Positions 1 to 52,771 are shown, counted from the first letter of the whole stretch. The stretch: DNA of 63,470 nt, filler included, from Psammoneis japonica (GCA_008632985.1; 3 parts of 3 records of this genome joined end to end with filler, not necessarily neighbours in it); one strand, 5' to 3'. Translations and numbers: made by a program. The notes: a model not told the origin generated them from the letters alone.

Positions 1-2028
1 GTCTTTTCAAGGAAAACAAACGTGTCGTTTCAAGGAAAACAAACGTGTCGTTTCAAGGAAAACAAACATGTTTTTTCAAGGAAACCAAACATGTCTTTTC
101 AAGGAAAACAAATGTGTTGTTTCAGGGAAAACAAACATGTGGTTTCAGAGAAAACAAACATGTCTTTCAAGGAAAACAAACATGTCGTTTCAAGAAAAAC
201 AAACGTGTCGTTTCAAAGAAAACAAACATGTTTTTTCAAGGAAAACAAACGTGTCTTTTCAAGGAAAACAAACGTGTCGTTTCAGGGAAAACAAACATGT
301 CGTTTAAAGACAAACATGTTGTTTCAAAGAAAACAAACACATCTTTTCAAGGACAACAAACATGTCGTTTCAAGAAAAACAAAGGTGTCGTTTCAAGGAA
401 AACAAACACATCTTTTCAGAGAAAATCAAGGTGTCATTTCAAGAAAAACAAACATGTGGTTTCAAGGAAAACAAACGTGTCATTTCAAGGAAAACAAACA
501 TGTCTTTTGGAGGAAAACAAACATGTCTTTTCAAGGAAAACAAACATGTCATTTCAAGGAAAACAAACATGTCTTTTCAGAGAAAACAAACGTGTCATTT
601 CAAGGAAAACAAAACAAACGTGTCGTTTCAGGGAAAACAAACATGTGGTTTCAAGGAAAACAAACATGTCTTTTCAAGGAAAACAAACATGTCTTTTCAA
701 GAAAAACAAACATGTCGTTTCAAAGAAAACAAACATGTCTTTTCAAGGAAAACAAATGTGACGTTTCAAGGAAAACAAACATGTCTTTTCAAGGAAACAA
801 ATCATGTCTTTTCAATGAAAACAAGCGTGTCGTTTCAAGGAAAACAAACATGTCATTTCAAAGAAAACAAACATGTTGTTTCAAGGAAAACAAACATGTG
901 TTTTCAAGGAAAACAAACATGTGCTTTCAAGGAAAGCAAACATGTCGTTTCATGGAAAACAAGCACGTCTTTTCAAAGAAAACAAACATGTCTTTTCAAG
1001 GAAAACAAACGTGTCTTTTCAAGGAAAACAAACGTGTCATTTCAAGGAAAACAAACATGTCTTTTCAAGGAAAACAAACATGTTTTTTCATGGAAAACAA
1101 GCGTGTCTTTTCAAGAAAAACAAATGTGTTGTTTCGGGGAAAACAAACATGTGGTTTCAGAGAAAACAAACATGTCTTTTCAAGGAAAACAAACATGTCG
1201 TTTCAAGAAAAACAAACNNNNNNNNNNNNNNNNNNNNNNNNNNNNNNNNNNNNNNNNNNNNNNNNNNNNNNNNNNNNNNNNNNNNNNNNNNNNNNNNNNN
1301 NNNNNNNNNNNNNNNNNNNNNNNNNNNNNNNNNNNNNNNNNNNNNNNNNNNNNNNNNNNNNNNNNNNNNNNNNNNNNNNNNNNNNNNNNNNNNNNNNNNN
1401 NNNNNNNNNNNNNNNNNNNNNNNNNNNNNNNNNNNNNNNNNNNNNNNNNNNNNNNNNNNNNNNNNNNNNNNNNNNNNNNNNNNNNNNNNNNNNNNNNNNN
1501 NNNNNNNNNNNNNNNNNNNNNNNNNNNNNNNNNNNNNNNNNNNNNNNNNNNNNNNNNNNNNNNNNNNNNNNNNNNNNNNNNNNNNNNNNNNNNNNNNNNN
1601 NNNNNNNNNNNNNNNNNNNNNNNNNNNNNNNNNNNNNNNNNNNNNNNNNNNNNNNNNNNNNNNNNNNNNNNNNNNNNNNNNNNNNNNNNNNNNNNNNNNN
1701 NNNNNNNNNNNNNNNNNNNNNNNNNNNNNNNNNNNNNNNNNNNNNNNNNNNNNNNTTTCAAGGAGAACAAACATGTCGTTTCAAGGAAAACAAGCATGTC
1801 TTTTCAAGGAAAACAATTGTGTCTTTTCAAGGAAAATAAACGTGTCGTTTCAGGGAAAACAAACATGTGGTTTCAAGGAAAACAAACATGTCTTTTCAAG
1901 GAAAACAAACATGTGTTTTCAAGAAAAACAAATGTGCTGTTTCAGGGAAAACAAACATGTAGTTTCAAGGAAAACAAACATGTTGTTTCAAGGAAAACAA
2001 GCATGTCTGTTCAAGGAAAACAAGCGTG
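1..2028 (+). repeat. 23-bp tandem satellite (consensus ~TCTTTTCAAGGAAAACAAACATG), N gap at 1218-1755
   Basis: The unit repeats continuously with CATG/CGTG/CACG and TCT/TCG/TCA/TGG variants. The periodic 'FQGKQTC/FKENKHV/SRKTNM' ORFs are translations of it. Confidence 0.97.
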
Positions 2029-2404
2029 CCATGCCCACCATCACATCGGCGCTGCAACACCAACAGAGCCACATTGATGTTGTTGCATTCGCCGCTGTGG
2101 CAGAACCGCCATGGTGGGTGATGCCTTCCATTGTCCAACTCATTTTTGGATCCATTCATGTGCTTGCTGTCGATGCTGCTGCTTCTGCTGCTGCAATTTG
2201 ACCACATTCATGCCGGTTGCTGTTGTTGCGCTGTTTGAGACATTGCAGCTGTGAATGTGCTTTGAATTGCAGAAGGGGGGCACGGAAGAGATGCAGGTGA
2301 GCTTGTTTTCAGCATCAAAGCAAGTTGCGTTGCTGTCTCTTCCGTTGTCATTTGTTGCTCAACACCCAAACCTCTGCATGCGCGCTGGCTCATGTTCTTT
2401 TCTT

Positions 2405-5400
2405 GCATCAGAGTTCATTGAGATTGCCGCTGAAGTCGCGCGAGAGAGTCAGAAACACCGTGAAGAAAGAGATGCACGGATCGCAGAACTCGAGCCAGAA
2501 TGCACGAAACAGTCGAAGGCGAAAGCCCGAATGCCACAAAACCAATGCTGCACCGAAGAAACCAAACGAGTCTTTCGGAAAATCAATGCGTGCAAAAAGT
2601 CAGAAAACTCCAGTGTGCAAACTGTTCAAATTCCAGCAGATCCTCGAGATGACTCAAAGACATGTGAGAATTGGACAACGACAGACGCTCCAGACAACGT
2701 CGAATCTGCACTTCAGCACTGCAATCAACGCCATTTCGGGCAGGCACACGGAACTCCTCCCACGGTTCCTGTCTTGTCAAATCCAATGATGGAGATTTCA
2801 CGTGCATCCAGGAAGACTTCGCCAACCAGCGACGACGATTGCACTTCTTGCCACGACAGGAACATTCCAGCAATTGTCGGATTGTGTGCGAAGAGCAATG
2901 GCATGCATGAAAGAGCAGTCAAAGTCAACATGGCGACTTTGCATCACGCGCGCCACTGGCTGCACACTCTTCTGGGACTCGCCAAACGATGTTGTTCTCA
3001 TTCCTCTGAGTGTCCTTTGTGTGGAACAGGACAAGGCAGTGGAAATTCTCCCTGGCACTGGAACACTCTGTGCAGCAGACTCTTTGATGTTTTCGATGCA
3101 GAAGCTGTCGGATCACATTTCGAAACCCCGGACGGACAGTTTTGCATTTGAGTTTTCAACCGAGGACATGTCGACGACACTTCCAAGCAAGTGAACGACT
3201 TTAGAGCCAGCCCTCAGCCTTCTGCTTTCGAGTTGTCTCAATCTCTACAATCGGACAACCAGTTGTGGTGTGATCCACTGGATGCGGCCGGGCACAAACC
3301 AGAATTGCCAAAATGTTCTTTCCACACCATCGAGTGGGACTTCACGGAATGTGGCGAACCATGCATCCGCCCTCACCACGATGACATCGAAGTGGAAATC
3401 TTTTCTGCAGATCGTTCTGCTTCCAGGTGCAGCACGCAATTGTCTGCATGTGCGCCTCACAAAACCTTGGGACACTGCATGGCTCCGACAGGCACACAGA
3501 AGACTCAACTGAAGAAGTTGCTCCACAAGAGCAATGCAGTCTCCCCATTTGTCCAATCATGTCCTTTGGACAGAAGAGAAACATGGCGGTGCCATTGTGC
3601 TTGTCATTTATCTTCGATGACATGCGCGCTGGCAAATTCAAACTTCCTCCCCAAAGAACTCCAACAGGTCCAACAGAAGGCCATGCGGACGATTTTTGCC
3701 AAATGCGGACACAACAGGAACACCAAACAAGCAATCTTGTGTGGACCGCAAATCCCTTGGAGGAGGCGGGTTTCGATCACTGGACGTCAAGCAAGGAGTG
3801 GCCCAACTGCAACAATCGTTGAAGCACTCGAGAGGGGTCAAACACTTGCAGCTCGGGGAGGACCAACCGCACAAGCTTCTTCACATTGCCGCAGCGTGGA
3901 TCCAACTGAACTTGGGAACTGGCGAGAGTTTCTTGTGGGACGTCGACACCGCATTGCCTCATGTGGAATCTAGATGGCTCGCATCTGTTGGGCTGTTTTT
4001 ACAGCAGATCAAAGGCCGGGTGTTTCTGCGCCACAACGGGGTCCTTCCACTTCAACGAGACAACGACCAGTGCTTGATGGATGTTGCTTTGCATTCCCAG
4101 TCCTTTGCCGCACGAGAGATCCGGTGGCCAAACTGTTGCCGTCTGCACCTGAAAGTCTTGTCTGTTTCAGATGTTGCTCTGTCGGATGGAATGACGCTGG
4201 ATGGGTCAAAAGCACAAGGGGAACCGTCATTGCAGAGCAGTGTCGGTGCACTCAACAACATCGAGCAGTGCAAGCCATGCCAGCGAGCATGGAAAGTCTG
4301 GAAGAAATTTTGTCCAGCCCTGTGCCATCCGAAGTCACTGCGCTTGAAGGAACCCCCAGGAGATTGGCTTCTGCCACCATCCCAGATGAGAGTGCAGTCA
4401 ACTGCGTGCTTTTCTCCATCTGAGGAACACTTGCATGTGCGCTCTCCAACCGGCTGTGACACATTTCAAGCAAACAGGACCATCGCTGATTCTGTCAGAG
4501 AGATGGAGACTGCACCACATCCTTCCGATTCTTCTTGTCCAGTTGAGGTGTCTACCATCAAGGATGGACGATGGCATTTTGAGATCCCGCGCACTTCATC
4601 AACCGCTTTCCACTCTCCGACCACTCCAGATTCCTTTCTGTCGCATCTTCAGGGACTCGACAAGTGGGAATCTGTGCCATTTGAAGACTTGGTCTTTCAT
4701 GTTTCTCCACGAACAGTGGTTCGACACTTTCTTTCGTCTCATCTCACCGCAGGCAGTGATGGATCGGTCCAAGAAGGAGCCACCTTTGGGTGGACCATTG
4801 CCATGGATGGTGCACCACCAGTGGATCATGCAGGGCCAGTTTTTGGGAAGACTCCGTCCTCTCACCACGCAGAAGCTTGCGGCATTCCATCCATTGCAAG
4901 ATTCATCTGCCGGCTGTGCGAATGCTGCCGCGTTGCCGTTCCTTTGGGTGCAGTGATTCATTGCAATGACAAAGCACTGGCTGACTGTTTGTCTGAATTG
5001 ACTCCCATCCTGCCGGTGAGTGATCCCGAGAACAACGCACGCGAACAACACGACTTTCACATTCGCTGCCATGGGTCCAACGCTGTCGCTCCGGATTGGG
5101 ACATTTTGAATGAGATCCTCCACACCCAGCAAGCTTTGACGCAACTGTCGGATGCAGCCGATCTCGCTCTGCCTCCAGTGCGATGGGTGAAAGGACATCA
5201 AGACAGGCAATCTCCCGTCCACTCATTGCCGTTAAATGCCAGAGTTAACATCCGAGCGGACAAATTGGCAGGAGCTTGCCAAGGACATTGCCTGCACGAC
5301 ACGAATCAGGTCAAGCACCTGCCACATTGCCGCTCGCATCTGGAGATCAACGGGGGTGCAATCACGACGAATTGCAAGAAACAAATTCGGTGCACTGCTG

Positions 5401-5921
5401 CTGCTCCTGAATTGATGCAACATGTTGTTGAACGGAACAAATGGGATCCTTCAGTGGTTGACCTTGTCAACTGGAATGCTCGCGCGGTTCTGGTGAAACG
5501 TCACTCACAACAGCATGTTGACACAGTCAAACTGGTCCATGACTTGCTGCTGACTGATCTCTTGGAGACTGCACCACATCCTTCCGATTCTTCTTGTCCA
5601 GTTGAGGTGTCCACCATCAAGGATGGACGATGGCATTTTGAGATCCTGCGCACTTCATCAACCGCTTTCCACTCTCCGACCACTCCAGATTCCTTTCTGT
5701 CGCATCTTCAGGGACTCGACAAGTGGGAATCTGTGCCATTTGAAGACTTGGTCTTTCTTGTTTCTCCACGAACAGTGGCTTGACACTTTCTTTCGTCTCA
5801 TCTCACCGCAGGCAGTGATGGATCGGTCCAAGAAGGAGCCACCTTTGGGTGGACCATTGCCATGGATGGTGCGCCACCAGCGGATCATGCAGGGCGAGTT
5901 TTTGGGAAGACTCCGTCCTCT
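2405..5921 (+). mobile_element. Non-LTR retrotransposon (Ambal-like LINE) ORF2 fragment, RT + RNase H, degenerate copy 1
   Basis: RT motifs CGTGQGSGNSP and GHVDD, then 'FAKCG..LCGP..LGGGGF'; RNase H motifs GSDGS, SSHHAEACG, WVKGHQD and NIRADKLA. It lacks ~610 bp at 2779 relative to the copy at 8389-8997, and 5563-5921 re-duplicates ~4505-4862. Confidence 0.88.
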
Positions 5922-6584
5922 CAGAGTGCGCGAAATGCCAAAAATGTGTGGATTTGCATGATGACAATTTGTCAAAATGTTGCAAAAAATTGTTGTTGCA
6001 CAATGACACTCCAACCTCTGGTTGCAAGTTTGCTGTGCCAATGTCGCGACAACTTGTTGAGAATCATGTGTGCCATTTTTCACTGTGCCCACATCGCCAT
6101 TTCTGCCTCCACCTTGTTGCCATGTGCCAATCCATGATTGCACTGCCGCGCAATCCTTGGTTTGTCAATTTTTGCAAACAGGGGTGTGATCACAGAACCA
6201 CTTGCGTGCCTGCTTGTTCCTTCGTTTGCTGCCAGCGACAGTGTCTGGGCCAAGCGGATCCCATGTCGGCACAATCGGGATGTCTTTCTTTTCATTCTTG
6301 TCATGGCTTGACTTTTTCCTGCCTTGCTTTTTCCTCTTGACTGCCGCCTTGAGTTTCTTTTCTTTTTCCTTTCCCTCTTCCTTGGCGACAACGCCTGCAC
6401 AGAAAAAGCATCACCGTCATCTTCTTGTGAGATGCGCGCAACTCTTGAGTCACACACATTGGTCACCCAACTTACGGGCCATTGCCTCCGCCCCAGCAGC
6501 CGAGCACACCGTGTTTCTGAGATTGTCTACTTGCCTTTTTGCCGCCTTTTTTGCCCATTCCTCCCAAGTTCCTGACCAATTTGA
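5922..6584 (-). repeat. Inverted copy of the block at ~13943-14604 (and ~22699-23360)
   Basis: Near-identical reverse complement; the same ORF translations recur on the opposite strand (e.g. 5849..6340+ vs 14186..14578-). Confidence 0.9.
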
Positions 6585-7632
6585 GGAAAACAAACGTGTC
6601 GTTTCAAGGAAAACAAACACGTGGTTTCAAGGAAAACAAACATGTCGTTTAAAGAAAAACAAACATGTCGTTTCAAAAAAAACAAACATGTCTTTTCAAG
6701 GAAAACAAGCACATCGTTTCAAGGAAAACAAACGCGTTGTTTCAAGGAAAACAAACATGCATTTTCAGAGAAAAAAAAAATGTCTTTTCAAGAAAAAACA
6801 AACATGTTCAAATGTGGGTGCAGCTGAAGCACAAAACAACTCATCTTGTGTGGCCCACAAACTCTTGGCGGTGGTGGGTTTTGACCGCCAGATGTCAAAC
6901 AAGGAGTTGCTCAATTGTGGGCACTGCTCAAGCATTCCAGAGGCATCACACATCTTCATCTGGGAGAGGGTCAACCCCACAAATTGCTGCACATTGCAGT
7001 CTCATGGATCCAACTGCACTTGGGGACAGGCGCAAGCTTCTTGTGGGGCGCAGATGCTGTTCTCCTGCACATGGAATCGTGTTGGTTTGCTTCCGTCAGT
7101 GCGCTCTTGCACAGAATTCAAGGCACACTCATGTTGTTTCAAGAAAAACAAACACGTCATTTCAAAAAAAAATGTCATGGGAAAACAAGCTTGTCTTTTG
7201 AAGGAAAACAAACGCGTCGTTTCAAAGAAAACAAACATGTTGCTTCAAAGTCATCTCAACAAACATGTCGTTTCAAGGAAAACAAACATGTCTTTTCAAG
7301 GAAAACAAACGTGTGTTTTCAAGGAAAACAAACACGTGGTTTCAAGGAAAACAAACACGTGGTTTCAAGGAGAACAAACATGTCATTTCAAGGAAAACAA
7401 GCGTGTCTTTTCAAGGAAAACAATTGTGTCTTTTCAAGGAAAACAAATGTGTCGTTTCAGGGAAAACAAACATGTGGTTTCAAGGAAAACAAACATGTCT
7501 TTTCAAGGAAAACAAACATGTGTTTTCAAGAAAAACAAACATGCTGTTTCAGGGAAAACAAACATGTCGTTTCAAGGAAAACAAACATGTTGTTTCAAGG
7601 AAAACAAGCGTGTCTTTTCAAGGAAAACAAGC
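6585..7632 (+). repeat. 23-bp satellite arrays (6585-6808, 7131-7632) flanking a LINE fragment
   Basis: Same unit as 1-2028. Confidence 0.95.
6805..7130 (+). mobile_element. Short fragment of a diverged LINE subfamily embedded in satellite
   Basis: Translates FKCGCS*STKQLILCGPQTLGGGGF...QPHKLLHIAVSWIQLHLGTG, homologous to but clearly diverged from 3700-4020. Confidence 0.85.
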
Positions 7633-8009
7633 GTGCCATGCCCACCATCACATCGGCGCTGCAACACCAACAGAGCCACATTGATGTTGTTGCATTCGCC
7701 GCTGTGGCAGAACCGCCATGGTGGGTGATGCCTTCCATTGTCCAACTCATTTTTGGATCCATTCATGTGCTTGCTGTCGATGCTGCTGCTTCTGCTGCTG
7801 CAATTTGACCACGTTCATGCCGCTGCTGTTGTTGCCGCTGTTTGAGACATTGCAGCTGTGAGTGTGCTTTGAATTGCAGAAGGGGGGCACGGAAGAGATG
7901 CAGGTGAGCTTGTTTTCAGCATCAAAGCAAGTTGCGTTGCTGTCTCTTCCATTGTCATTTGTTGCTCAACACCCAAACCTCTGCATGCGCGCTGGCTCAT
8001 GTTCTTTTC

Positions 8010-11000
8010 TTGCGTCAGAGTTCATTGAGATTGCCGCTGAAGTCGCGCGAGAGAGTCAGAAACACCGTGAAGAAGAAAGAGATGCACGGATCGCAGAACT
8101 CGAGCCAGATTGCACGAAACAGTCGAAGGCGAAAGCCCGAATGCTACGAAACCAACGCTGTGCCGAAGAAACCAAACGAGTCTTTCGGAAAATCAACGCG
8201 TGCAAAAAGTCAGAAAACTCCAGCGTGCAAACTGTTCAAATTCCAGCAGATCCTCGAGATGATCCCAAGACATGTGAGAATTGGACAACGACAGACGCTC
8301 CAGATGACGTCGAATCTGCACTTCAGCACTGCAATCAACGCCATTTCGGGCAGGCACATGGAACTCCTCCCACGGTTCCTGTCTTGTCAGTGGATCTCGG
8401 ATGTGAAGGAGATGCCATCATGGCTGACCTGATCTCAGACAGTGAGTGCGAAACGGAACAACTGAGCCGGGCTGCATCGTTGCTGATCCAGCATCTCCAA
8501 TGACGCACACCCCCAGCAGTTCCTGGCACCCTTTCTCCTGAAGCCCTGCAGTCAAAGATTGCATTGTGGTCTGAATCTGCCTCTGCATCATTGAAATCGG
8601 GGATTCATTTGGGGCATTGGAAAGCTGTGCATGCTCCTCATTCTCATGCATCTGATTGCGATGATGACGGGAATCCATCCGATCGGAAAGAACTGCTGGA
8701 TTCGGCTCAACAGACTCTTGTGGCAGTGCAGCTCAACTTGATCAATTGCACTCTGAAGTGGGGCTGCTCGTACGAACGGTGGAAAGACATTGTGAGTGTG
8801 ATGATTTTCAAAGAACCAGGCAACAACAAGATTCACAGATTGCGAGTGATTCATGTTTGCGAGGCAGATTTCCAATTGATTGCAAGCGTCAAGTGGCAAG
8901 AGTTGGCTCAAAAATGTGGAGCACCATCACATGTGCAACCCAGGGATCTACGGATGCAGATCATTCCTCTCCACTCAAACACCAGCCGTTTCTTGAAAAT
9001 CCAATGATGGAGATTTCACGCGCATCCAGGAAGACTTCGCCAACCAGCGACGACGATTGCACTTCTTGTCACGACAGGAACATTCCAGCAATTGTCGGAT
9101 TGTGTGCGAAGAGCGATGGCATGCACGAAAGAGCAGTCAAAGTCAACATGGCGACTTTGCATCACGCGCGCCACTGGCTGCGCACTCTTCTGGGACTCGC
9201 CCAACGATGTTGTTCTCATTCCTCTGAGTGTCCTTTGTGTGGAACAGGACAAGGCAGTGGAAATTCTCCCTGGCACTGGAACACTCTGTGCAGCAGACTC
9301 TTTGATGTTTTCGATGCAGAAGCTGTCGGATCACATTTCGAAACCCCGGACGGACAGTTTTGCATTTGAGTTTTCAACCGAGGACATGTCGACGACACTT
9401 CCAAGCAAGTGAACGACTTTAGAGCCAGCCCTCAGCCTTCTGCTTTCGAGTTGTCTCAATCTCTACAATCGGACGACCAGTTGTGGTGTGATCCACTGGA
9501 TGCGGCCGGGCACAAACCAGAATTGCCAAAATGTTCTTTCCACGCCATCGAGCGGGACTTCACGGAATGTGGCGAACCATGCATCCGCCCTCACCACGAT
9601 GACATCGAAGTGGAAATCTTTTCTGCAGATCATTCTGCTTCCAGGTGCAGCACGCAATTGTCTGCATGTGCGCCTCACAAAACCTTGGGACACTGCATGG
9701 CTCCGACAGGCACACAGAAGACTCAACTGAAGAAGTTGCTCCACAAGAGCAATGCAGTCTCCCCATTTGTCCAATCATGTCCTTTGGACAGAAGAGAAAC
9801 ATGGCAGTGCCATTGTGCTTGTCATTTATCTTCAATGACATGCGCGCTGGCAAATTCAAACTTCCTCCCCAAAGAACTCCAACAGGTCCAACAGAAGGCC
9901 ATGCGGACGATTTTTGCCAAATGCGGACACAACAGGAACACCAAACAAGCAATCTTGTGTGGACCGCAATCCCTCGGAGGAGGCGGGTTTTGATCACTGG
10001 ACGTCGAGCAAGGAGTGGCCCAACTGCAACAATTGTTGAAGCACTCGAGAGGGGTCAAACACTTGCAGCTCGGGGAGGACCAACCGCACAAGCTTCTTCA
10101 CATCGCCGCAGCGTGGATCCAACTGAACTTGGGAACTGGCGAGAGTTTCTTGTGGGACGTCGACACCGCATTGCCTCATGTGGAATCTAGATGGTTCGCA
10201 TCTGTTGGGCTGTTTTTACAGCAGATCAAAGGCCGGGTGTTTCTGCACCACAACGGGGTCCTTCCACTTCAACGAGACAACGACCAGTGCTTGATGGATG
10301 TTGCTTTGCATTCCCAGTCCTTTGCCCGCGAGAGATCGGTGGCCAAACTGTTGCCGTCTGCACCTGAAAGTCTTGTCTGTTTCAGATGTTGCTCTGTCGG
10401 ATGGAATGACGCTGGATGGGTCAAAAGCACAAGGGGAACCGTCATTGCAGAGCAGTGTTGGTGCACTCAACAACATCGAGCAGTGCAAGCCATGCCAGCG
10501 AGCATGGAAAGTCTGGAAGAAATTTTGTTCAGCCCTGTGCCATCCGAAGTCACTGCGCTTGAAGGAACCCCCAGGAGATTGGCTTCTGCCACCATCCCAG
10601 ATGAGAGTGCAGTCAACTGCGTGCTTTTCTCCATCCGAGGAACACTTGCATGTGCGCTCTCCAACTGGTTGTGACACATTTCAAGCAAACAGGACCATCG
10701 CTGATTCTGTCAGAGAGATGGAGACTGCACCACATCCTTCCGATTCTTCTTGTCCAGTTGAGGTGTCTGCCATCAAGGACGGACGATGGCATTTCCGAGA
10801 TCCCGCGCACTTCATCAACCGCTTTCCACTCTCCGACCACTCCAGATTCCTTTCTGTCGCATCTTCAGGGACTCGACAAGTGGGAATCTGTGCCATTTGA
10901 AGACTTGGTCTTTCATGTTTCTCCACGAACAGTGGCTCGACACTTTCTTTCGTCTCATCTCACCGCAGGCAGTGATGGATCGGTCCAAGAAGGAGCCACC

Positions 11001-12190
11001 TTTGGGTGGACCATTGCCATGGATGGTGCACCACCAGTGGATCATGCAGGGCCAGTTTTTGGGAAGACTCCGTCCTCTCACCACGCAGAAGCTTGCGGCA
11101 TTCCATCCATTGCAAGATTCATCTGCCGGCTGTGCGAATGCTGCCGCGTTGCCGTTCCTTTGGTGCAGTGATTCATTGCAATGACAAAGCACTGGCTGAC
11201 TGTTTGTCTGAATTGACTCCCATCCTGCCGGTGAGTGATCCCGAGAACAACGCATGCGAACAACACGACTTTCACATTCGCTGCCATGGGGCCAACGCTG
11301 TCGCTCCGGATTGGCACATTTTGAATGAGATCCTCCACACCCAGCAAGCTTTGACGCAACTGTCGGATGCAGCCGATCTCGCTCTGCCTCCAGTGCGATG
11401 GGTGAAAGGACATCAAGACAGGCAATCTCCCATCCACTCATTGCCGTTAAATGCCAGAGTTAACATCCGAGCGGACAAATTGGCAGGAGCTTGCCAAGGA
11501 CATTGCCTGCACGACACGAATCAGGTCAAGCACCTGCCACATTGCCACTCGCATCTGGAGATCAATGGGGGTGCAATCACGACGAATTGCAAGAAACAAA
11601 TTTGGTGCGCTGCTGCTGCTCCTGAATTGATGCAACATGTTGTCGAACGGAACAAATGGGATCCTTCAGTGGTTGACCTTGTCGACTGGAATGCTCGCGC
11701 GGTTCTGGTGAAACGTCACTCACAACAGCATGTTGACACAGTCAAACTGGTCCATGACTTGCTGCCGACTGACAAGATTGCAAATCAACACAACCCAGTT
11801 CGACCGCACCAATGCATCACATGTGAGCATCCGATGGAAGACAGGGACCACATGCTTTGGTGTCCAAACAACGAACAGTGGAGAAGGAAGTTCCTGCAGG
11901 GTCTTTGATGCTGCTGCGACAAGATCGACACTGTGCCTGCTCTCCGAGACTTCCTCCTGGACATGCTTCAAGCCTGGTTTGATGACGAAATGACGTGCTT
12001 CGACAATGTGGACTGTTGATGCAAGGAACTTTGGTGAGCTCAATTGGATGTTGGTTGGAGACAGGTTTTCAACGGCAGATGCTCGCACATGTGGAATCTT
12101 TTGCAATCCGGACACCTGCGCGATTCTGGCATTCTACGACAATGTCAGGAAGAAAACAAACAGCCACCAGATTGGACGGTTCAGATCGGG
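8010..12190 (+). mobile_element. Ambal-like LINE ORF2, degenerate copy 2 (RT, RNase H, C-terminal CCHC-like region)
   Basis: SGIHLGHWKA, IFKEPGNNKIHRLRVIHVCEADF, CGTGQGSGNSP, GHVDD, RNase H motifs, CITC...HMLWC and GWRQVFNGR. Contains frameshifts and TGA stops. Preceded by a ~375-bp spacer (7633-8009) that matches 2024-2404. Confidence 0.9.
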
Positions 12191-12497
12191 TCTTTCAATG
12201 TGTTTGTCTTCAACATCAAACAAACGGCAAAGTTTGTGGCACAATCATGCCTCTTGCCACTCAACGTTTTTGCAAATGCACCTGCCCTGCACGATTCTTA
12301 AGACATTGTAGAATCGCGCTGTAACAAAAAATGTCAAAAGTTGTTGGATGGATCGCTCAACAAGTGCACCGTAAAATGACACAAAATGTCAAAAAAATCA
12401 CGTAGAAATCTACGTGCGCGACATGCGACGTGATTCAAAAAACTGTCGATGTCACAGTTCAGCAGTGCGAGGTCCCACCTGGACCTGGAACGCGTCA
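12190..12497 (-). repeat. Dispersed repeat end, probably a DNA-transposon terminus (other copies ~21500-21804; opposite orientation at 27250 and 35726)
   Basis: About 95 bp (GACGCGTTCCAG...GGGACCTCGCA.TGCTGAACTGTGACATC...CACGTAGA) is shared between scaffolds 1 and 2. Confidence 0.55.
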
Positions 12498-12665
12498 AAC
12501 ATGTCGTTTAAAGGAAAACAAACATGTTGTTTCAAAGAAAACAAACGTGTCTTTTCAAGGAAAACAAACATGTCTTTTCAAGGAAGGAAAACAAACGCGT
12601 TGTTTCAAGGAAAACAAACATGTCTTTTTGACAAAAACAAACATGTCTTTTCAAGAAAAACAAAC
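12497..12665 (+). repeat. 23-bp satellite, short array (duplicate at 21805-21931)
   Basis: Same unit. Confidence 0.93.
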
Positions 12666-20682: not shown

Positions 20683-21500
20683 AATCTCGCTCTGCCTCCA
20701 GTGCGATGGGTGAAAGGACATCAAGACAGGCAATCTCCCATCCACTCATTGCCGTTAAATGCCAGAGTTAACATCCGAGCGGACAAATTGGCAGGAGCTT
20801 GCCAAGGACATTGCCTGCACGACACGAATCAGGTCAAGCACCTGCCACATTGCCGCTTGCATCTGGAGATCGACGGGGGTGCAATCACGACGAATTGCAA
20901 GAAACAAATTCGGTGCGCTGCTGCTGCTCCTGAATTGATGCAACATGTTGTCGAACGGAACAAATGGGATCCTTCAGTGGTTGACCTTGTCAACTGGAAT
21001 GCTCGCGCGGTTCTGGTGAAACGTCACTCACAACAGCATGTTGACACAGTCAAACTGGTCCATGACTTGCTGCCGACTGACAAGATCGCAAATCAACACA
21101 ACCCAGTTCGACCGCACCAATGCATCACATGTGAGCATCCGATGGAAGACAGGGACCACATGCTTCGGTGTCCAAACAATGAACAGTGGCGAAGGAAGTT
21201 CCTGCAGGGTCTTTGATGCTGCTGCGACAAGATCGAAGCTGTGCCTGCTCTCCGAGACTTCCTCCTGGACATGCTTCAAGCCTGGTTTGATGACGAAATG
21301 ACGTGCTTCGACAATGTGGACTGTGGATGCAAGGAACTTTGGTGAGCTCAATTGGACATTGGTTGGAGACAGGTTTTCAACGGCAGATGCTCGCACATGT
21401 GGAATCTTTTGCAATCCGGACACCTGCACGATTCTGGCATTCTGCGACAATGTCAGGAAGAAAACAAACAGCCACCAGATTGGACGGTTCAGATCGGGTC
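20683..21500 (+). mobile_element. LINE 3' fragment (duplicate of ~11376-12190)
   Basis: Near-identical to copy 2 from WVKGHQD to GWRQVFNGR. Confidence 0.9.
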
Positions 21501-21930
21501 TTTCAATGTGTTTGTCTTCAACATCAAACAAATGGCAAAGTTTGTGGCACAATCATGCCTCTTGCCACTCAACGTTTTTGCAAATGCACCTGCCCTGCAC
21601 GATTCTTAAGACATTGTAGAATCGCGCTGCAACAAAAAATGTCAAAAGTTGTTGGATGGATCGCTCAACAAGTGCACCGTAAAATGACACAAAATGTCAA
21701 AAAAATCACGCAGAAATCTGCGTGCGCGACATGCGACGTGATTCAAAAAACTGTCGATGTCACAGTTCAGCAGTGCGAGGTCCCACCTGGACCTGGAACG
21801 CGTCAAACATGTCGTTTGAAGGAAAACAAACATGTTGTTTCAAAGAAAACAAACGTGTCTTTTCAAGGAAGGAAAACAAACGCGTTGTTTCAAGGAAAAC
21901 AAACACGTCTTTTTGACAAAAACAAACATG

Positions 21931-23537
21931 TCTCCCCCAGTGTCATTGTGAGATGCACTGGCCTGAGCAGCCAAGCAGCGATGCAGAGAATCATCGTCAT
22001 TTGCACCCACAATGATGCCCTCATTGTGATGGGATGTCTGACACGAACAAGCCGAAGCAATGCACCTGGTTGCACTCATCATTGTCAGCTGTCCACCGGA
22101 CTTTGACGGTCCTTGGCACACACTGACGCATGCGCGCTCTTCCTCCTTTTGCACCATGGCATCAGCAGAAGGTTCCCATCCAAGGGATGGCGTCAGCTCC
22201 AGCCGGGGGAGGGTCTCCATGTCCTCCTGAGTCAGCTCGTGTGAGTCAAAGACCAAAGCAACACCTTGCGCGCGCAAATGCACCCTGATTTTCAAGTCAA
22301 GGAAAACAACAGAGTGCGCGCTGTTGGGGTCAAACTGGCGAGGGGTGTCGTGGACAGTCAGCTCACTTGCTCACAGTTGGCTGGGGCACAGCAGGGTGTC
22401 AGTCATTCTTTCCCTGAAAAACACAGCCTCGTGGGCTGGCAGTGGGCGTGGCTGTCCATTGGCTGGATCAACCCACATGGCAGCAGCCACGCAAATGGGG
22501 ACAGCCCGAGACTTCAGGCAGTGTTGAAGAGAACGGGCATGCAGGCAGCGCATGGTGCGCTGAAACCAGAAGAGGAGAAGGTGGCTGGAAATGATCTCTT
22601 TCCACAGGTGAAGTTTCTCAGCCCGTCAGAATTGGCAAGCAATGGGAGCGTCTCAATGTTTGTCAAGAAACAGATTGCTGGTGGCAACACGGACACTTCA
22701 AATTTGTCAGGAACTTGGGAGGAATGGGCAAAAAAGGTGGCAAAAAGGCAAGTTGACAATCTCAGAAACACGGTGTGTTCGGCTGTTGGGGCGGAGGCAA
22801 TGGCCCGCAAGTTGGGTGACCAATGTGTGTGACTCGAGAGTTGCGCGCATCTCACAAGAAGATGACGGTGATGCTTTGTCTGTGCAGGCATTGTCACCAA
22901 GGAAGAGGGAAAGGAAAAAGAAAAGAAACTCAAGGCGGCAGTCAAGAGGAAAAAGCAAGGCAGGAAAAAGTCAAGCCATGACAAGAATGAAAAGAAAGAC
23001 ATCCCGATTGTGCCGACATGGGATCCGCCCAGCCCAGACACTGTCGCCAGCAGCAAATGAAGGAACAAGCAGGCACGCAAGCAGTTCTGTGATCACACCC
23101 CTGTTTGCAAAAATTGACAAACCAAGGATTGTGCGGCAATGCAATCACAGATTGGCACATGGCAACAAGGTGGAGGCAGAAATGGCGATGTGGGCACAGT
23201 GAAAAATGGCACACATGATTCTCAACAAGTTGTTGTGACATTGGCACAGCAAACTTGCAACCAGAGGTTGGCCTGTCATTGTGCGACAACAATTTTTTGC
23301 AACATTTTGACAAATTGTCATCATGCAAATCCACACATTTTTAACATTTCGTGCACTCTGATGCGTGTGTTGTGCACAGCATCATCACACAGCATTTGCC
23401 CAACTCTCCCTGTCATTGCAGGATGGGTTGTCGCCACGCGGCGCATCTGCACAGTGGAGTTGCGAATTTGACCATGCACTCCCTCTGTCAGGCAGGATGG
23501 GTTGGTGGCATGTGGCGCATCCGGCCAAGGGAGGAGT
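21931..23537 (+). repeat. Segmental duplicate of ~13176-14781 (copia fragment, unclassified block, start of 412-bp unit)
   Basis: Colinear, near-identical sequence. Confidence 0.92.
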
Positions 23538-24791: not shown

Positions 24792-26433
24792 AGCCCCTCC
24801 CTTGACGTCGCACAAAAACAAAAACAAAAACGTTTTTTGTTTTCGTGACACGCGCGACGGCCTTGTCATCAAACAAAAACAAAAACACCCTTTACATGCA
24901 TTTGCATGCCAAACCACATGTGGTGCATGGAGCCACGTGCTGACAATGCCGGCTGCAGATGACCGCAACAAACAAAAGGGCAAGACACGCGATGGCGTCT
25001 TCGAAATCCATTTTGTGACGGCAATTGTCAATCAATCATGACACAAGTCAATGCAGTCAACATTGTTGATTGAATGTCATCCACAGCATAAAAGACAAGG
25101 TGAAATGTGTCAGCTTGTGTGCAGAATGCCAGCACAACAGATCGGTCGTCAAAAAAGCACTGCTCTTGTGTTGTGTCATCACAAATGCGAGTCACAAGGC
25201 AACCAGAGTGATGGCTGAGGCAGAAGCAGGACCTCACATGGCTGACAAAAATGTGGAGGATTGAACAGTCTTGTTTTTGCCTCCCTTCCATGCATCTCAT
25301 GTGCAGAACACAGTGGATCGTTTCATCATGCTTGTCTTGCATGGTCACAAACACAAGCCACAAGGCATCTGTGTTGAAGGCAAAAAAAAAGGACCGCACA
25401 TGACCAATGTCAATGTGGAGAGTTCAATGGAAAAGCTTGTCCCTCCCAATTCCACCAGAAGGGGCCGCATCGCGTCGATGTGTCGATGCATCAGTCATGG
25501 TCGTCGCTGGCAGTGGATTTGCCGTCGCACAAAAACAAAAACAAAAACGCATTTGACCCACTCGACTGCACTTTGACTCGATCGACTGAGACTTTGGTTT
25601 TTGTTCACGACTGCTCGTGAACAAAAACGACACCATGTTTTTGGTTTTTGTGGAAACAAAACAGCTCACAAAAACGCAGCGCTGTGGGTCTTTCCACGCA
25701 CAAATCCACCACCTGCGACGACCATGACTGATGCATTGACACATCGACATGATGCGGCCCCTTCTGGCAGAATGAGGAGGAACAAGCTTTTCCATCTCAT
25801 TCTCCACATTGACATTGGTCATGTGCAGTTCTGCTGTGGCCTTGTCCTTCACTGTGGATGCCTTGTGGCGTGCATTTGTGACCACACAACAAAAGCATGA
25901 CAATGCGATCCGCTGCATTCTGCACATGAGATGCGACAAAGGGAGGAAAGAACGTGACCATTCAATTCGCCACATTTTTAATGGCCATGTGAGGCTCTAC
26001 TTTTGCCTTGGCCATCACTCTACAGTCGCCTCACATGATGTGCACTTGTGACGACATGACACGAGAACAGCGCATTTCTGACAACCAATCTGTTGCACCA
26101 GCATTCTGCGCACAATCCACCACATTTCATCTCATCTTTTATGCTGCAGATGACATTCAACCAATGTCATTGACTGCAGTGACTTGCGTCATGATTGATT
26201 GACAATTGCCGTCATGAATGGATTCGAGTGCACCATTGCATGTCTTGCCCACTTTGTTTGCTGCTGTCGACTGAAGCCGGTGTTGACAGCGCGTGGCTCC
26301 GCACGTGCGTGGTTTGGTGCAGAAATGCACGCAAGGGGTGTTTTTGTTTGCTGTTTGATGACAAGGCCGTCGCGCGTGTCACAAAAACAAAAAACGTTTT
26401 TGTTTTTGTTTTTGTGCGACGACAAGGGAGGGG
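24792..26433. mobile_element. Foldback or inverted pair of a non-coding element; arms ~24792-25521 and ~25701-26433
   Basis: The arms are diverged reverse complements (CCCTCCCTTG.CGTCGCACAAAAACAAAAACAAAAACG... versus ...TGTGCGACGACAAGGGAGGGG). Confidence 0.8.
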
Positions 26434-28640
26434 CCAAGGGAGGGGCTCACATCATGCTTCTGTCAAATGACTGCTGCTGGCAAAAAGCAAAAAAAAAATG
26501 AGCACATGTGCCCACTGCACTGACAGCGCCACCAGGTGTGGAAGCTGCAACTTTGGTGCAGGTGTCACACTCACAAAAATGAGCAGGATGTGACCCCCTC
26601 TTTTCACACGAGTGTGCCACACCTGCGCCAGCAAACCCAGGTGTGCAACACCCAGGTTTCAAATGGCTGCTGCACCACACATGACACTCCTGGAGTGGGG
26701 CCACCATGCTGCGCAGAAATGCATTTTGCACTGTGATGCCATCAGCACACAGAATCTGCAGCAGTGCTGAAAGCCACCTCCTTCTTTCTTTTTTTGCTTG
26801 GGCTAAAATTCAAGAGCTTCAGTGCAAAAAATGTGCATGTTTTGCTGCACAAAAATTGGCAAGTTGCTGTTGCTGCATCAAAACATCACTGATTGATCCC
26901 TCATGCCTGAAGTCATGATGTTTTGAGCGGATCTTGTTGCCGCCACATGTGGCTGACATGTTGCACAAAAATGTCGTCAATCTTGTCACTTGCAGACCAA
27001 AATGTCAGTCTTTGACCAAGCAAGTTGTCAAAGATTGGCTCCGTGCATTTGCGCACTGCATGCAGGACCCTGATCATCATCACCATTCATTTGGCTCCGG
27101 GCAAAAGATGGTGGTTGGCTTCAAATGTCAAGAATCAATCAGAAGAGGACAGGTCATTTCTGGATCAGTTGGGAGTTTCTGTGGTCAACTTTGAATGGGT
27201 GCACAAAAAGACATGTCTCTCAAAAATCAACAAGGGCAAGTGTCCAGCAGACGCGTTCCAGCTCTAGGTGGGACCTCGCAGTGCTGAACTGTGACATCAA
27301 TGGTTTTTTGGATCGCGCCGCATGTCGCGCACGTAGATGGCTACGTGTGACATTCTACGAAACCAGGCCTGTGGGGAGCATTGACCACTTGTCTTTCTTT
27401 GTGGGTGTGGGTGTGTGTGTGCCGTTGCGTGCTGCATTGCCTGCACGCACGTGGGGCCCCACCGCCGGGGCCGGCATTGTGGCGGCTGAGTGGCATGGCC
27501 ACCGCACCGGTGACGCGGATGACCGTTGTGTTTGATGTCTCATGCCATTTTTGGGGCTGCAGCGAGGTGCACGGACACTCTTTTTTTCCAATTTATCGCC
27601 ACAATGGCGCATCACACAAACTCACTTGTTGTTCGACATGTTTTCCCCAATGTGACTTTTTTGTGTAGAATTCACGACAAATTGTCTTTGCATGTCCCTG
27701 GTCCGCGCATCGTTGCGCTTTTGTGCAACAGTGCACGATTTTTGGGTCACAGACATTTCCCTTTCATTCTCCACACCGTTGCAGGAAAGTGCAGCCAGGA
27801 TTTTACACACATCTGTGTCATCGCATGCTGTGTGAAAACAGCACTTGCATGTCAAATGCCTCATTCGGCATGAATGTCAGTGTTCAAACAATGGCGCTCA
27901 AAACATCAACCCTGTGGAATTCTGCGTCAATTCCAGTGGAAACCGCGTTGTGCTTTTCTGCAACGTGGCGATTTTCACGACCAAAAATGCATCCTCTTGC
28001 TGTTTGTCTTATGAAAGCCACCTCAGGTTGTTTGACACTGTCAAACCACCAGACACCATCATTGGAGCCTGCTTTGGCTAGTTGGGTCAGGTCAGGTGTC
28101 AAATGACCGGCTTTGTCAATTGTTGGCAACAGCACAAAACCATGTTGTGCTTTCGCGCAACGTGAAGGCGCGGACCAGGGATGTGACTGAATGCATTTTT
28201 GAACATGCCACGCCGTCAATCCCAATTTTTCAGAACTTTCGAGCTCTCCCAAAAAACCGTGCCGCGTGCCCGTCGCAGGGAATTTATCGATTTTTTAGGA
28301 TGTCCCCACAACCTCTCATGTCCTCAATGACAACTCCAAGAATCCGAAGAATTCATCTGCACTAAACAACCCACACCCTTTCAAAATCCAAGGGACACAC
28401 TTTCAAATTCAGACGGACAACCCGACTGCCCGACCCCCCGACCCCCCGACTGCCCGACTGCCGGACCGACACGAAAAAGTCTGCAATCACCAACCACTGA
28501 GTGGTCAATGATTGTTTCACACTTCCCATTTTGCGAAGCCAAAGGCTTTCTGTTTTCAACATTTGTGACAACGAAAATGCACTGGGCACATTCTTTAATG
28601 TCTGTAGAATGTGCCCATACAAACTGTTGTTCATGCACTT
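25731..28640 (+). repeat. ~2.9-kb direct repeat, copy A (copy B at 34207-37110)
   Basis: Colinear near-identity at an offset of ~8.47 kb; 37054-37110 matches 28584-28640 after the N gap. Confidence 0.92.
28421..28470 (+). repeat. 9-bp minisatellite CCCGAC(TGC/CCC)
   Basis: About five imperfect units upstream of LINE ORF1. Confidence 0.7.
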
Positions 28641-30571: not shown

Positions 30572-30683
30572 CATCAATTTTCCGTCGGACTTCACGACAC
30601 CGGAGTTTTTCCTTCCAAACCAACACCAAGTTAATGCAGTGCTCTAAGCCTCAGTCTTCTCTTCGGAGGAGCATGGCCCAACA

Positions 30684-33600
30684 ATGAGTCGTTCGCCTTC
30701 TGCTGAAGATCCAGCTCTCGCTTGGCAGAACATCCTAGACAGACGCAGTTGCCACCCTCCCACAGATCGTCGGACAGATTTTTCTCGACTGAAGACCAAT
30801 GCACCTGTGGGCGACGAACTCCGGCCCAAGCTTTCTCACCATGCGCGCCTTTACGCCTTCAATGCCAACGGTTGTAAATTCGACAAGCGTGGCGGTGATG
30901 TGAACGAGTGCTGTCAACTCGCCTCCGAAATTCAAGCCGATGTCATTGGCATCTCGGAGGTGTGCCTCGACACCACCCAATTCGACATTTTGTCTGTGTG
31001 TAGATCCACCGTTTCCAAGTCTTTACATCATGGGCGGTCTGCCTTTTCAAGCAGTTCCACCACCTTTACAACGCAACACAAACTGGGTGGAACGGCCTTG
31101 TTGTCATGCAATTCGATTTCTGCTCGCTTCCGGACTCAAGAATCCGACCCACTCGGCAGGTGGTCAATTCAAGTCTTCGACGGTGGGAATGGACGCCAAG
31201 TTGTGTTTGTCTCTTGCTGTCGAGTTTGCGCCAAGAACCAACAACACCCAGGGAAGACAACAGCATGTGCTCAACAATTGGCCCTCCTCCGGCAACCAGG
31301 GCGCCGGTCACTCGATCCCAGGAAGGCATTTTGCACAGACTCATCCCGAGTCTTGCAGGATTTTCTGGCGGATTCCAATCGAGAAGTCATTATTTTTGGG
31401 GACTTTAACACTGATTTCACCTGTGACACTGACTCTTTGGCTGCCGTTGCCCAGCGCTTCAATTTGTCTGACGTCCTGTTTAACATCATGGGCGACACTG
31501 AGTTCTCCACACACACCAGAGGTTCCCGGCGTCTTGACCACGTGCCAGCCTCTCCTGGCGCTCTTGCTGCAGCTCGCTTCAGTGGATGTGAAGCCTTTGG
31601 ATGTTGAGTCACTTCTGATCATCGTGCTTGCTTCGTGGACTTTGACACCGCAGCTCTTTTCGGCAACCCGACTGTCGATTTACCCAAGGCATCCTTCAGG
31701 GATGTTCAGGCTACGTCTAAACCACAGCTCACCTCTTGTCTACAGGCAATCGGCCCAATGATTCAGAGTCGTTCGGTGTTGCAACGCTCTTTCCAGCCAC
31801 TGGAACTTGACGCTCCAGATCATGCTCTGGCTGAACGGTTGGACCGTGATCTCCTACAGTTCTCTCTTTCCGCTGCCAAGAAATGCCGAATTCATCGCAA
31901 ACCCGACTGGTCGGTTGAACTTTCAGACCTGAGGTGCCGGGTGCACATCTTTTCCCGCCTCGCATCCATGATGAGGACAAAATTGGACTGCGCATCACAG
32001 ATTTGAGCAATGCGAGACAAACTGAGTGGATCCTTCACTGTCCCCGACACTTTACAAGGTTGTCAAGAGGCGCTGCGCACTGCTCAAGACGACTGCAAGC
32101 GATTGGCGGCTGACAGTGTCGTACACCGCGAAAGGGAAGTTTCCGAGAGGACAGCCACACTCGATCTGGAAGGCACTGAGGAGTCACGCAAACAGGCAAC
32201 TATCTTGCGCAATGTCCGCAAGGCAGAAGAGATGAAAAAGCTGTTCAGGAAGATTGACTCATGCCGCACTCAGAGGGACACAGGCATTCAGAGCGTCCAA
32301 GTTCCCGGCAATCCTTCTGTTCCTCCCAAAGAATGTCAAGATTGGATCACTGTTGACGCTCCGGAAGAGGCAGCCACTGCTCTCCGTCAACGCAATCAAA
32401 AACACTTCGGTCAGGCACAAGGCACCCCTCCAACGGTGCCTCCGTCATCCATGGACCTGGGCTGTGAAGGTGACACTGTCATGGCGGATCTTGTTCTTGA
32501 TGGCGAGCATGACACGTCGGCTTTGAACGAAGCAACCGCCCTTTTCATCAACCACTTGTGTCGCCGTTCCCCAGTCTCTGTGCCGAATCTTCTGTCTGCA
32601 TCAGATCTCGAAGGAAAAACAAAACGTTGGAAAGAATCCACCTCCACGTCTGTTTGCTCCGGCCTCCACCTGGGTCATTGGAAAGCAATGTATGCTCCTC
32701 ATTGGTTCTCAGATGCAACTGATTCCGAAGGCAATCCCACCCCTGAACGTGAGGCCCTCGATGAAGTTCAACAATCCCTTGTTCAAATCAGGTTGAATCT
32801 GCTTAACTGTGCCCTTCGTTGGGGATGCTCCTTTCACCGCTGGCAAGACATTGTCAACGTGATGATCTTTAAAGAGCCAGGCAACAACAAGACACATCGT
32901 CTCCGTGTCATCCATGTCTACGAAGCTGACTTTCAATTGTTCTCGAGCGTCAAGTGGCGCGCTCTGGCCCAAAACATGGAACACCGCCGATCACACAACT
33001 CGGGGATCTATGGCACTCGCGCCTTCTTAAATGCCAACACTCCTGTGCACCTTGAAGAACTCATGCTCGAGATCAGCCGTGCCTCCCGAAAATCCGCCAT
33101 TCACAGCGATGATGATTGCACATCGTGTTGCGACCGGAATGTTCCCGCTCTGGTTGCAATTGAGAGCCGCAGCAATGGCATGCCCAAAGAAGTCACTCAA
33201 GTCGCTGACGCTGCTGTTCACAAGGCTCGCCACTGGTTGCGAACGGTGCTGGGCCTGTCACTAACTTCTTGTTCTCACTCTGATGACTTCCCCATTTACG
33301 GAACAGGACAGGGCAGCGGAAACTCTCCGTTCTGCTGGAACCAAATTTGCAACAGTCTGTTCCAGATCTTCGATCAACGGGCACATGGTGCATTTTTCGA
33401 GTCCCCAGATCACTCCCTCTCGCTGCAGATGTTCAACAGAGGACATGTCAACGACACGTCCAAGCAGGTGAACGATTTTTGTTCGAGTCCTCAACCTTGC
33501 ATCCTCGATTTGGCTTTCAAGATGCAGGAAGATGATCAACTGTGGTGCGACCTTTTGAACGCGGCTGGCCATGAGTTAGAATCACCCAAATGCTCCTTCC

Positions 33601-52731: not shown

Positions 52732-52736
<5 letters not shown>

Positions 52737-52767: not shown

Positions 52768-52771
<4 letters not shown>

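Follow-up and report, generated by a model that had tools for sequence, protein, structure and literature searches.

Loss of TpA from repeats and non-coding DNA in a 63-kb window of Psammoneis japonica, probably through a directional TpA-specific transition process

In a window of Psammoneis japonica DNA (by which we mean the whole stretch of 63,470 nucleotides analysed, from GCA_008632985.1), one site is TA, CA and TG in three paralogous copies, two of which lie in duplicated blocks carrying a long interspersed nuclear element (LINE; Table 1). How does a single dinucleotide come to exist in three states? An earlier note on this DNA proposed that TA is ancestral, that each derived state arose from it by one transition, one on each strand, and that TpA loss continued after the recent duplications. 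This interpretation is supported in substance, mostly on evidence beyond that cited for it. The DNA is strongly depleted in TpA, and the explanation that we consider likely is a directional, TpA-specific transition process that was still acting after recent duplications.

The window is eukaryotic and repeat-rich, carries no lower-case masking and includes 1,302 N. Two identical 100-bp spacers (23683-23782 and 47470-47569), each made up of 44 N, TTAATTAATTAA and 44 N, are presumably synthetic, with stops in all six frames. They identify the window as three contigs artificially joined, so that adjacency across a spacer is not biological; every copy compared below sits inside one contig or another. 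Contigs from a public read set matching the window (2,952 of them aligned over the 8.2 kb tested) reach a summed depth of up to 76,000, against ~69 for single-copy contigs. Thus, the window's families are highly repeated in the genome.

Depletion of TpA across the window

Over the whole window TpA has an observed/expected ratio (O/E) of 0.14, CpA and TpG are in excess (1.60 and 1.57) and CpG stands at 0.67. The other dinucleotides of A and T (AA 1.30, TT 1.31, AT 0.86) are not depleted as TA is, a feature shared with a process described in Bigelowiella natans that we discuss below. Throughout the first 47 kb, which hold LINEs, 23-bp satellites and other non-coding DNA, TpA O/E is 0.03-0.11. 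Contig by contig, it is 0.03 in contig 1 (23.7 kb, 50 TA), 0.11 in contig 2 (156 TA) and 0.33 in the gene-bearing contig 3 (359 TA); per contig, CpA and TpG have an O/E of 1.4-1.6 and CpG of 0.63-0.68.

At the 1-kb scale the two genes have a TpA O/E of 0.5-0.85, and the DNA between them (52-55 kb) of 0.05-0.20. Depletion affects the LINEs, a gypsy element, a possible transposase open reading frame (ORF) and the satellites, is much weaker in the two genes, and reaches low-copy and intergenic DNA as well, all within one mobile-rich window. The low-copy stretch 26548-27093, with a summed depth of ~100-130 against ~69 for single-copy DNA, holds one TA in 546 bp. Among the mobile elements TpA O/E falls from 0.11-0.37 in the gypsy element, through 0.10-0.20 in LINE copy B, to 0.00-0.07 in LINE A, an order that we read as an age gradient. 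The depletion also shapes the coding potential that appears in the window: ORFs of at least 150 amino acids number 105 in 63 kb and occupy all six frames because TAA and TAG stops barely occur, and an open frame in such DNA therefore means little.

Variation from region to region is far larger for CpG loss than for TpA loss. At 37001-40000, 48001-49000 and 52001-55000 CpG is nearly gone too (O/E 0.10-0.26), with CpA/TpG at 1.7-1.9. The first 2 kb of the window have 24% G+C and nearly no TA.

Direction, timing and context of the changes

The direction of change can be read from the reverse transcriptase (RT) of the LINE, for which homologues from outside the window serve as the outgroup. A 588-residue RT ORF (32007-33770) has no Pfam match; it has 63 homologues at 28-47% identity, a few of them with endonuclease or RT domains. 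A profile hidden Markov model built from these 63 outside homologues matches three places, which we call copies B, A1 and A2 (Table 1). Taken with their satellite flanks, the matches identify the blocks 1756-5557 and 7363-11772 as two copies of a LINE with flanking 23-bp satellite. A1 is without profile positions 206-406, which A2 has, corresponding to an internal deletion of ~600 bp since the duplication.

We defined conserved tyrosine columns as those with Tyr in at least 60% of at least 25 outside homologues. Of 11 such columns, copy B has retained Tyr at 3 and otherwise has His (2), Cys (4), Trp (1) and Phe (1); A2 keeps it at none of 10 (Cys 6, His 2, Trp 1, Phe 1) and A1 at none of 4 (His 2, Cys 2). 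His or Cys therefore replaces Tyr at 6/11, 8/10 and 4/4 columns in B, A2 and A1, and the codons are always CAT/CAC or TGT/TGC. When each of 62 homologues was left out in turn as a control, at most 3 His/Cys stood at conserved Tyr columns, and none in 40 of them. Tyrosine content is 0.7% in copy B and 1.5-5.6% in the homologues. Other conserved residues are kept far better than Tyr (158/211 in B and 145/204 in A2; Fisher P = 0.002 and 8e-6, respectively). Replacements of other amino acids fit the same TpA chemistry: Ile to Thr is always ACA, Leu to Ser is TCA, Leu to Pro is CCA, and the three Ile to Val changes of copy B are preceded by T.

The same columns record both products. Between LINE copies, columns 712 and 954 have TGC versus CAT and CAC versus TGC, that is, CA versus TG at an ancestral TAY, and columns 884 and 1020 have TGY in A, whereas B has retained TAC. 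Sense-strand A>G (Tyr to Cys, Ile to Val) and sense-strand T>C (Tyr to His, Ile to Thr, Leu to Ser or Pro) occur in the same copies. Because both strand senses are hit, the substrate of the change was DNA, or else both strands were exposed to it; action confined to the LINE transcript would not suffice.

Arginine codons provide an internal comparison with CpG decay. Conserved Arg is kept at 13/14 columns in B, all 13 as CGN, and at 8/13 in A2; CpG-type changes of Arg to Cys, Trp, His or Gln number 0/14 and 2/13 (P = 0.003 in each copy, compared with Tyr loss). With CGN mostly intact beside the lost tyrosines, TpA has decayed further than CpG in the same LINE copies.

Two metagenome homologues, P0056 and P0083, have 4/11 of the conserved Tyr and 3 His/Cys; in P0083, Tyr makes up 1.5% of residues and His 6.6%. 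The process may also operate in the organisms from which these two come.

Timing was addressed with the recent duplicates, in 15 pairwise alignments with an identity of 94% or more. Across 13,531 columns they show 312 mismatches, of which 269 are transitions and 43 transversions; some copies occur in several of the 15 pairs, so that the same event is counted more than once. CpG transitions, which the earlier note did not mention, are the main class of difference (CG/TG 66 and CG/CA 75, together 141/312). With a CpG O/E of 0.63-0.68, they establish CpG decay as a second process in the window, and it is not the cause of the TpA deficit. Sites where one copy reads CA and its partner TG, here called CA/TG doubles, amount to 32; CpG decay alone, at the rate given by the CG/x and CG/CG counts (x being CA or TG), would be expected to yield 5.3. 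The remaining classes are TA/CA (9), TA/TG (9), conserved TA/TA (26) and conserved CG/CG (466). CG was never paired with TA in 27 non-satellite pairwise alignments (at least 150 bp) of all identities. Per occurrence, TA stands opposite another dinucleotide most often (29.7%, with CG at 13.6% and the other 14 dinucleotides at 2.3-5.9%), an excess that is confounded by the rarity of TA.

The doubles are concentrated in one place. In 825 bp at 27401-28250 there are 17 of them, with 0.58 expected, alongside 12 CpG transitions, 6 other transitions and no transversion. In terms of TA sites, 17 have changed in both copies, 1 in one and 5 in neither, and the adjoining 1.7 kb has no double at all. This two-peaked outcome suggests short local episodes, without proving them, and we infer that the 825 bp held ~40 TA (O/E ~0.8) when they were duplicated. 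A runs test on the order of CA and TG found no strand-wise tracts in this stretch (7 runs, ~9.5 expected). Gene conversion from diverged family members was considered as the source of the 17 doubles and rejected, since old pairs carry 20-38 transversions for 17-24 doubles and the stretch has none.

A different signature is found in the pair 11376-12625/20684-21933, where all five TA/x sites have TA in the first copy, within 375 bp, an arrangement with a probability of 1 in 16 by symmetry. Action after duplication, as the earlier note had argued, seems to be borne out by the excess of doubles, this one-sided pair and the age gradient.

At the three-state site itself, all three copies of GAGGTGTC were found with TA, CA and TG where described. 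The surrounding 361-bp copies differ at 4/361 positions between the TA and TG forms (4504 versus 10719) and at 8/361 and 10/361 in the other comparisons; the copies at 4553 and 10768 are thus sisters and the one at 5612 is the outlier. Two fast steps lead from TA to the three states, whereas from CG a slow step is required on top of two fast ones, and TA is very probably the hub. One three-state site on its own allows no test against chance; the wider pattern does. Five further pairs that had been cited with it also exist, at coordinates within 2-3 bases of those given (12135/21443, 12322/21630, 12403 and 12411/21711 and 21719, 27265/35741, 28618/37088).

Loss depends on the flanking bases. 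Among the 206 TA that survive in the first 48 kb (spacers excluded), 9 have A on the 5' side and 20 have T on the 3' side. The O/E of NTAN is 0.25 for TTAA (possibly inflated by the overall abundance of A and T runs), 0.05-0.11 with C or G flanks, 0.013 for ATAC/GTAT and ATAG/CTAT, and 0.005 for ATAT. Taking the edited adenine as reference, loss is easiest in TAT and hardest in TAA. The flanks of CA/TG doubles are the opposite of those of surviving TA, as expected of converted TA sites: 5' A or 3' T occurs at 75/130 double sites and at 96/245 CG/x sites (P = 0.0007).

Repeats, mobile elements and genes

The features of the window are collected in Table 1. Pfam was searched with 16 ORFs at first and then with 104 ORFs from the 183 that reach 110 amino acids or more; among those scanned it identifies only the LINE endonuclease, the Ty3/gypsy element and the two genes. 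No deaminase domain was found among the 104 of 183, and a scan of the window against Rfam returned no family.

Table 1. Positions of the three-state site, duplicated blocks, repeats, mobile elements and gene-like frames in the window
Feature	Position	Strand	Remarks
Three-state site, TA state	4553..4554	.	copy A1 of duplicated LINE block; GAGGTGTC-TA-CCATC
Three-state site, CA state	5612..5613	.	internal 361-bp duplicate 5563-5923; GAGGTGTC-CA-CCATC
Three-state site, TG state	10768..10769	.	copy A2; GAGGTGTC-TG-CCATC
Duplicated block A1, satellite remnant and LINE	1756..5557	+	RT part 2420-3655 with internal deletion; TpA O/E 0.00-0.07
Duplicated block A2	7363..11772	+	96.8-98.4% identical to A1; LINE RT 8018-9873; conserved Tyr 0/10
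Copy keeping TA at 12135, 12322, 12403, 12411 and 12509	11376..12625	+	partner, 96.6% identical, has TG or CA
Partner copy	20684..21933	+	TG, CA, CA, TG, TG at the five TA sites of 11376..12625
2.5-kb duplicated segment, copy 1	25729..28250	+	includes 27401-28250 with clustered CA/TG doubles
2.5-kb duplicated segment, partner copy	34205..36703	+	96.2% identical overall to 25729..28250
LINE copy B endonuclease, apurinic-type	30648..31604	+	Pfam Exo_endo_phos, E 2.6e-11
LINE copy B RT part	31830..33910	+	conserved Tyr kept 3/11; Arg 13/14, all 13 CGN
Largest 23-bp satellite array	1..1217	+	unit GTCTTTTCAAGGAAAACAAACAT; A+T-rich, nearly TA-free
Further 23-bp satellite arrays	1756-2023, 6584-6807, 7180-7630, 12496-12666; inverted 15502-16313, 18055-18980
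Telomere-like hexamer array, contig end	23539..23682	+	23 units
AMP-binding gene-like ORF	49664..51970	+	TpA O/E ~0.5
Glycosyltransferase family 90 gene-like ORF	57324..58934	-	TpA O/E 0.6-0.85
Ty3/gypsy-type long terminal repeat retrotransposon (protease, RT, RNase H, integrase), frame breaks	59131..62274	-	TpA O/E 0.11-0.37

The common eukaryotic telomere unit is TTAGGG. The telomere-like array at 23539-23682 has none of these among its 23 units, which are TTGGGG (14/23), TCAGGG (4/23) and one each of CCAGGG, CTGGGG and TCGGGG. If the ancestral unit was TTAGGG, as is presumed here, each main form lies one TpA transition away, a hint that the three-state pattern recurs in tandem copies.

A 412-bp tandem unit occurs in four copies (14607-15473, 17572-18041 and 23363-23540) that form two clades 11-15% apart, with seven or eight CA/TG doubles. 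At 27690-28186, other genomic copies skip 495 bp (27691-28185) and have the junction TATATA (depth 550) or, more rarely, TGCACA (56), TTTGCA (85) or CACA, as if a TA-repeat target had received an insertion, with TpA conversion in some copies. An 889-residue open frame on the + strand (40835-43501) has no Pfam match and is possibly what is left of a decayed DNA transposase: its feature-based look-alikes include Plavaka and Transposase_21 clusters, at scores of 0.87-0.92 and with recognition weaker than usual.

The gypsy RT still has Tyr in its YIDD motif. Protein matches of the two genes are at best 34-49% identical, and the only named ones are from diatoms (31-36%). Look-alikes identified by features are suggestive of diatoms, green algae and haptophytes. 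The idea of a dinoflagellate, with 5-hydroxymethyluracil at TpA, was rejected, as the spliced-leader relic has no match at up to 3 mismatches and the gene matches point elsewhere.

Explanations and relation to known systems

A TpA-specific transition would turn TA into TG by A>G, or into CA if the other strand is affected. Such a process, long active on this DNA and continuing after the recent duplications, would remove TpA almost completely from LINEs, satellites and other non-coding DNA while CpA and TpG filled in. As the palindromic TA is open to change on either strand, paralogues would come to carry TA, CA or TG, and very often CA versus TG. CpG decay to TpG and CpA would proceed in parallel and, once TpA is exhausted, would supply most differences between the youngest duplicates. 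The activity may come in short local episodes on stretches that are still rich in TA. It could be the work of an enzyme that deaminates adenine in DNA and is directed at mobile or silent sequence, of the kind proposed and still unproven for B. natans; the enzyme and its targeting are the part of the scheme that we advance only tentatively and with real doubt.

In B. natans, mutation-accumulation lines revealed two integrated viral regions that mutate ~1000-fold faster (Mettrop et al., bioRxiv 10.64898/2026.01.13.699255). According to the main text of that preprint, 230 of 231 mutations in these regions are A>G or T>C, all stated to fall on TpA and seen in only some lines; the genome contains 124 clusters of 1-kb windows poor in TpA and rich in CpA and TpG, and TpA-poor coding sequences are enriched for RT and endonuclease-RT domains. 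The authors suggest, as yet without proof, that an adenosine deaminase resembling ADAT2 acts on the DNA (bioRxiv 10.64898/2026.01.13.699255). The likenesses to our window are close as far as that text describes the process: TpA changes to TpG or CpA according to strand, TpA loss and CpA/TpG gain extend over adjacent 1-kb windows, and A>G/T>C transitions start from TpA, as found here at the Tyr codons of three LINE copies. Of the 63 1-kb windows that could be scored here, 38 pass both B. natans cut-offs, in runs that include 17001-28001 and 34001-40001 (CpA and TpG were averaged, and the published formula may differ).

There are differences as well. TpA O/E is 0.03-0.11 here and 0.45 in the B. 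natans viral region, and the depletion in our window runs unbroken over tens of kb, including satellites and the telomere-like array. The window yielded no recognisable gene of a giant virus or virophage. Our evidence is comparative, whereas de novo mutations were observed in B. natans, and the flank dependence found here is absent from the main text of the preprint. The organism is also another one, given that its best gene matches are so distant although B. natans proteins should be among those searched.

Several observations weigh against a directional TpA-specific process or limit how far it explains the data. TA/CA and TA/TG singles number 18 in the young pairs, and 13.1 are expected from ordinary transitions at 2,636 conserved CA/TG sites; two-copy TA/x pairs thus cannot show direction. 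The pairs listed in the earlier note therefore leave its ancestral TA without polarity, their number being that of background, and the aligned dinucleotide counts that it called for single out TA per occurrence only; the LINE tyrosine codons are what polarises the change. CG as the ancestral state in an outgroup would have spoken against that note. The LINE outgroup gives TAY at conserved Tyr, but CG is the third state at three other three-state sites (F4 column 278, F6 columns 89 and 191), and some CA/TG differences consequently derive from CpG, and the site at 4553/5612/10768 is itself without an outgroup. A1 and A2 share His/Cys states, so that most TpA loss predates their duplication, and 7 of 8 TA sites are common to both. 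In addition, both copies in the young pairs still have TA at 26 sites, and five of these lie within the 825 bp that hold 17 doubles; a uniform per-site rate does not fit, and episodes and context dependence are needed. When only the 17 clustered sites are considered, their flanks are not significantly enriched (10/17, with 12/31 for conserved CpG). Variable sites of the 23-bp satellite alternate between CA, CG and TG, and are never TA in 154 units. The stable CA sites of the satellite (3 TA and 2 CG in ~285) hardly vary, which means that CA itself is not hypermutable and that the satellite is no help as a polariser. Finally, the only read set matching the window may be the assembly's own source and hence provides no independent check; among 40 of the 1,320 places where its contigs differ from the window, TA in the window faces CA or TG 5 times and the reverse holds 4 times, with 4 CA/TG doubles and ~13 differences of CpG type, which decides nothing on direction.

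Could the whole pattern be decay of methylated CpG, with CG ancestral at the CA/TG and TA/CA/TG sites and TA secondary? The leading share of CpG transitions among young duplicates, the lowered CpG O/E, the CG hub at the three other sites and the satellite alternation are all what such decay would produce. It cannot, however, bring TpA to 0.03, and it offers no account of tyrosine codons, which were never CG, becoming CAY or TGY while adjacent CGN arginines stayed intact. CA/TG doubles six-fold above expectation overall and ~29-fold locally, together with the complete lack of CG/TA pairs, also contradict it, and we consider it very improbable as the sole cause. A process resembling repeat-induced point mutation (RIP), whereby CpA and TpG become TpA in one of two duplicates and TA is the derived state, would place all TA on one copy within a short distance, as in 11376-12625/20684-21933. 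Repeats in our window are nearly TA-free, whereas RIP enriches TpA, and the outgroup polarises the change from TA to CA or TG; we give this reading almost no credence. Nor is selection against TA, without any mutation bias, at all likely to be responsible, whether TA is disfavoured as a target of TA-inserting transposons, as a site for a UA-cutting RNase or through stop codons. TpA is mildly under-represented in most genomes; one listed paper, PMC3829696, deals with selection against UpA in expressed RNA. Yet depletion here is strongest in dead LINEs, satellites and non-coding DNA and weakest in genes, the reverse of selection on RNA or coding sequence, and the loss of catalytic-core Tyr from an RT cannot be favoured.

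Some protists carry heavily modified thymine or adenine, and a modified base in TpA that is misread could leave CA and TG as consensus errors, a concern that the possible identity of the read set with the assembly's own data does not allay. Separately built contigs carry 89% of the sampled 31-letter words of 50000-59000, however, and over TpA-poor DNA separate contigs at single-copy depth differ at 0 positions in 557 bp and at 1 in 333 bp. Copy-specific CA or TG states are stable enough for assembly, and the same changes in B. natans are heritable mutations by short reads, as its preprint describes them, which makes an artefact of sequencing or assembly a very unlikely source. We attach more weight, while still judging it improbable, to an untargeted, genome-wide context bias, for example of replication or repair, that converts TpA everywhere and leaves TA in exons only through coding selection, with no defence involved. 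The intergenic DNA at 52-55 kb and the low-copy stretch 26548-27093 are as TpA-poor as the high-copy repeats, and even the genes lie below 1. Against a constant rate, the two-peaked 17/1/5 outcome beside 1.7 kb without doubles favours local episodes, and the B. natans process is confined to particular regions and some lines in the preprint's account. One mobile-rich window cannot settle targeted against genome-wide action.

The TpA-specific transition process that we favour has partial counterparts in other systems. RIP acts mainly at CpA and enriches TpA. Like RIP in ascomycete fungi, the process inferred here is a transition hypermutation, inactivating repeats and mobile elements, in a dinucleotide context, affecting either strand and leaving paralogues that differ at many sites. 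RIP proceeds by C>T according to the part of the literature on fungal repeats consulted; in our window TpA is destroyed and CpA and TpG are created, leaving repeats with a TpA O/E of 0.03-0.11 and CpA/TpG of ~1.6. Decay of methylated CpG is similar in that a palindromic dinucleotide is lost by transition on either strand, with the same products and the same CA-versus-TG differences. The starting dinucleotide is different, and the TpA deficit and the Tyr to His/Cys changes are unexplained by CpG. Hyperediting of double-stranded RNA by ADAR in animals shares A>G and a preference for 5' U/T, as summarised in the B. natans preprint (bioRxiv 10.64898/2026.01.13.699255). ADAR acts on RNA, whereas here both strands of the LINE copies are affected, rather than the transcribed one only, and the satellites are equally TA-free. 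T is not known to be the 3' neighbour that ADAR favours; here T is the least retained 3' neighbour of A.

A search of full-text literature, as far as its matches were covered, returned no other report of TpA-only hypermutation; the matches listed for TpA depletion concern other meanings of the term or mild genome-wide biases. Those listed for CpA, TpG and TpA in repeats are all from fungal genomes and deal mostly with RIP. Our window adds a second case, far more extreme, of a process so far described in one species only. New here are the outgroup polarisation, TpA decay running ahead of CpG decay, the flank preference, and satellites and possibly telomere-type repeats as substrates. Its extent can be gauged from a TpA O/E down to 0.03 over tens of kb. 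Whether this amounts to TpA-specific DNA editing, of the sort reported for the chlorarachniophyte B. natans, in a distant eukaryote, erasing TpA from essentially all mobile and non-coding DNA including the telomere-like array, with TAT as the best and TAA as the poorest substrate, is a serious possibility about which we are close to evenly divided, leaning slightly to caution.

For annotation, a consequence is that mobile-element proteins, as they decay, are stripped of Tyr, Ile and Leu codons and are then missed by profile searches, as was the 588-residue RT frame. Any candidate deaminase would need to reproduce the flank preference. If the DNA-editing reading is true, the process would represent a widespread and ancient eukaryotic genome defence that works by deamination of adenine and not of cytosine, a mirror image of RIP.

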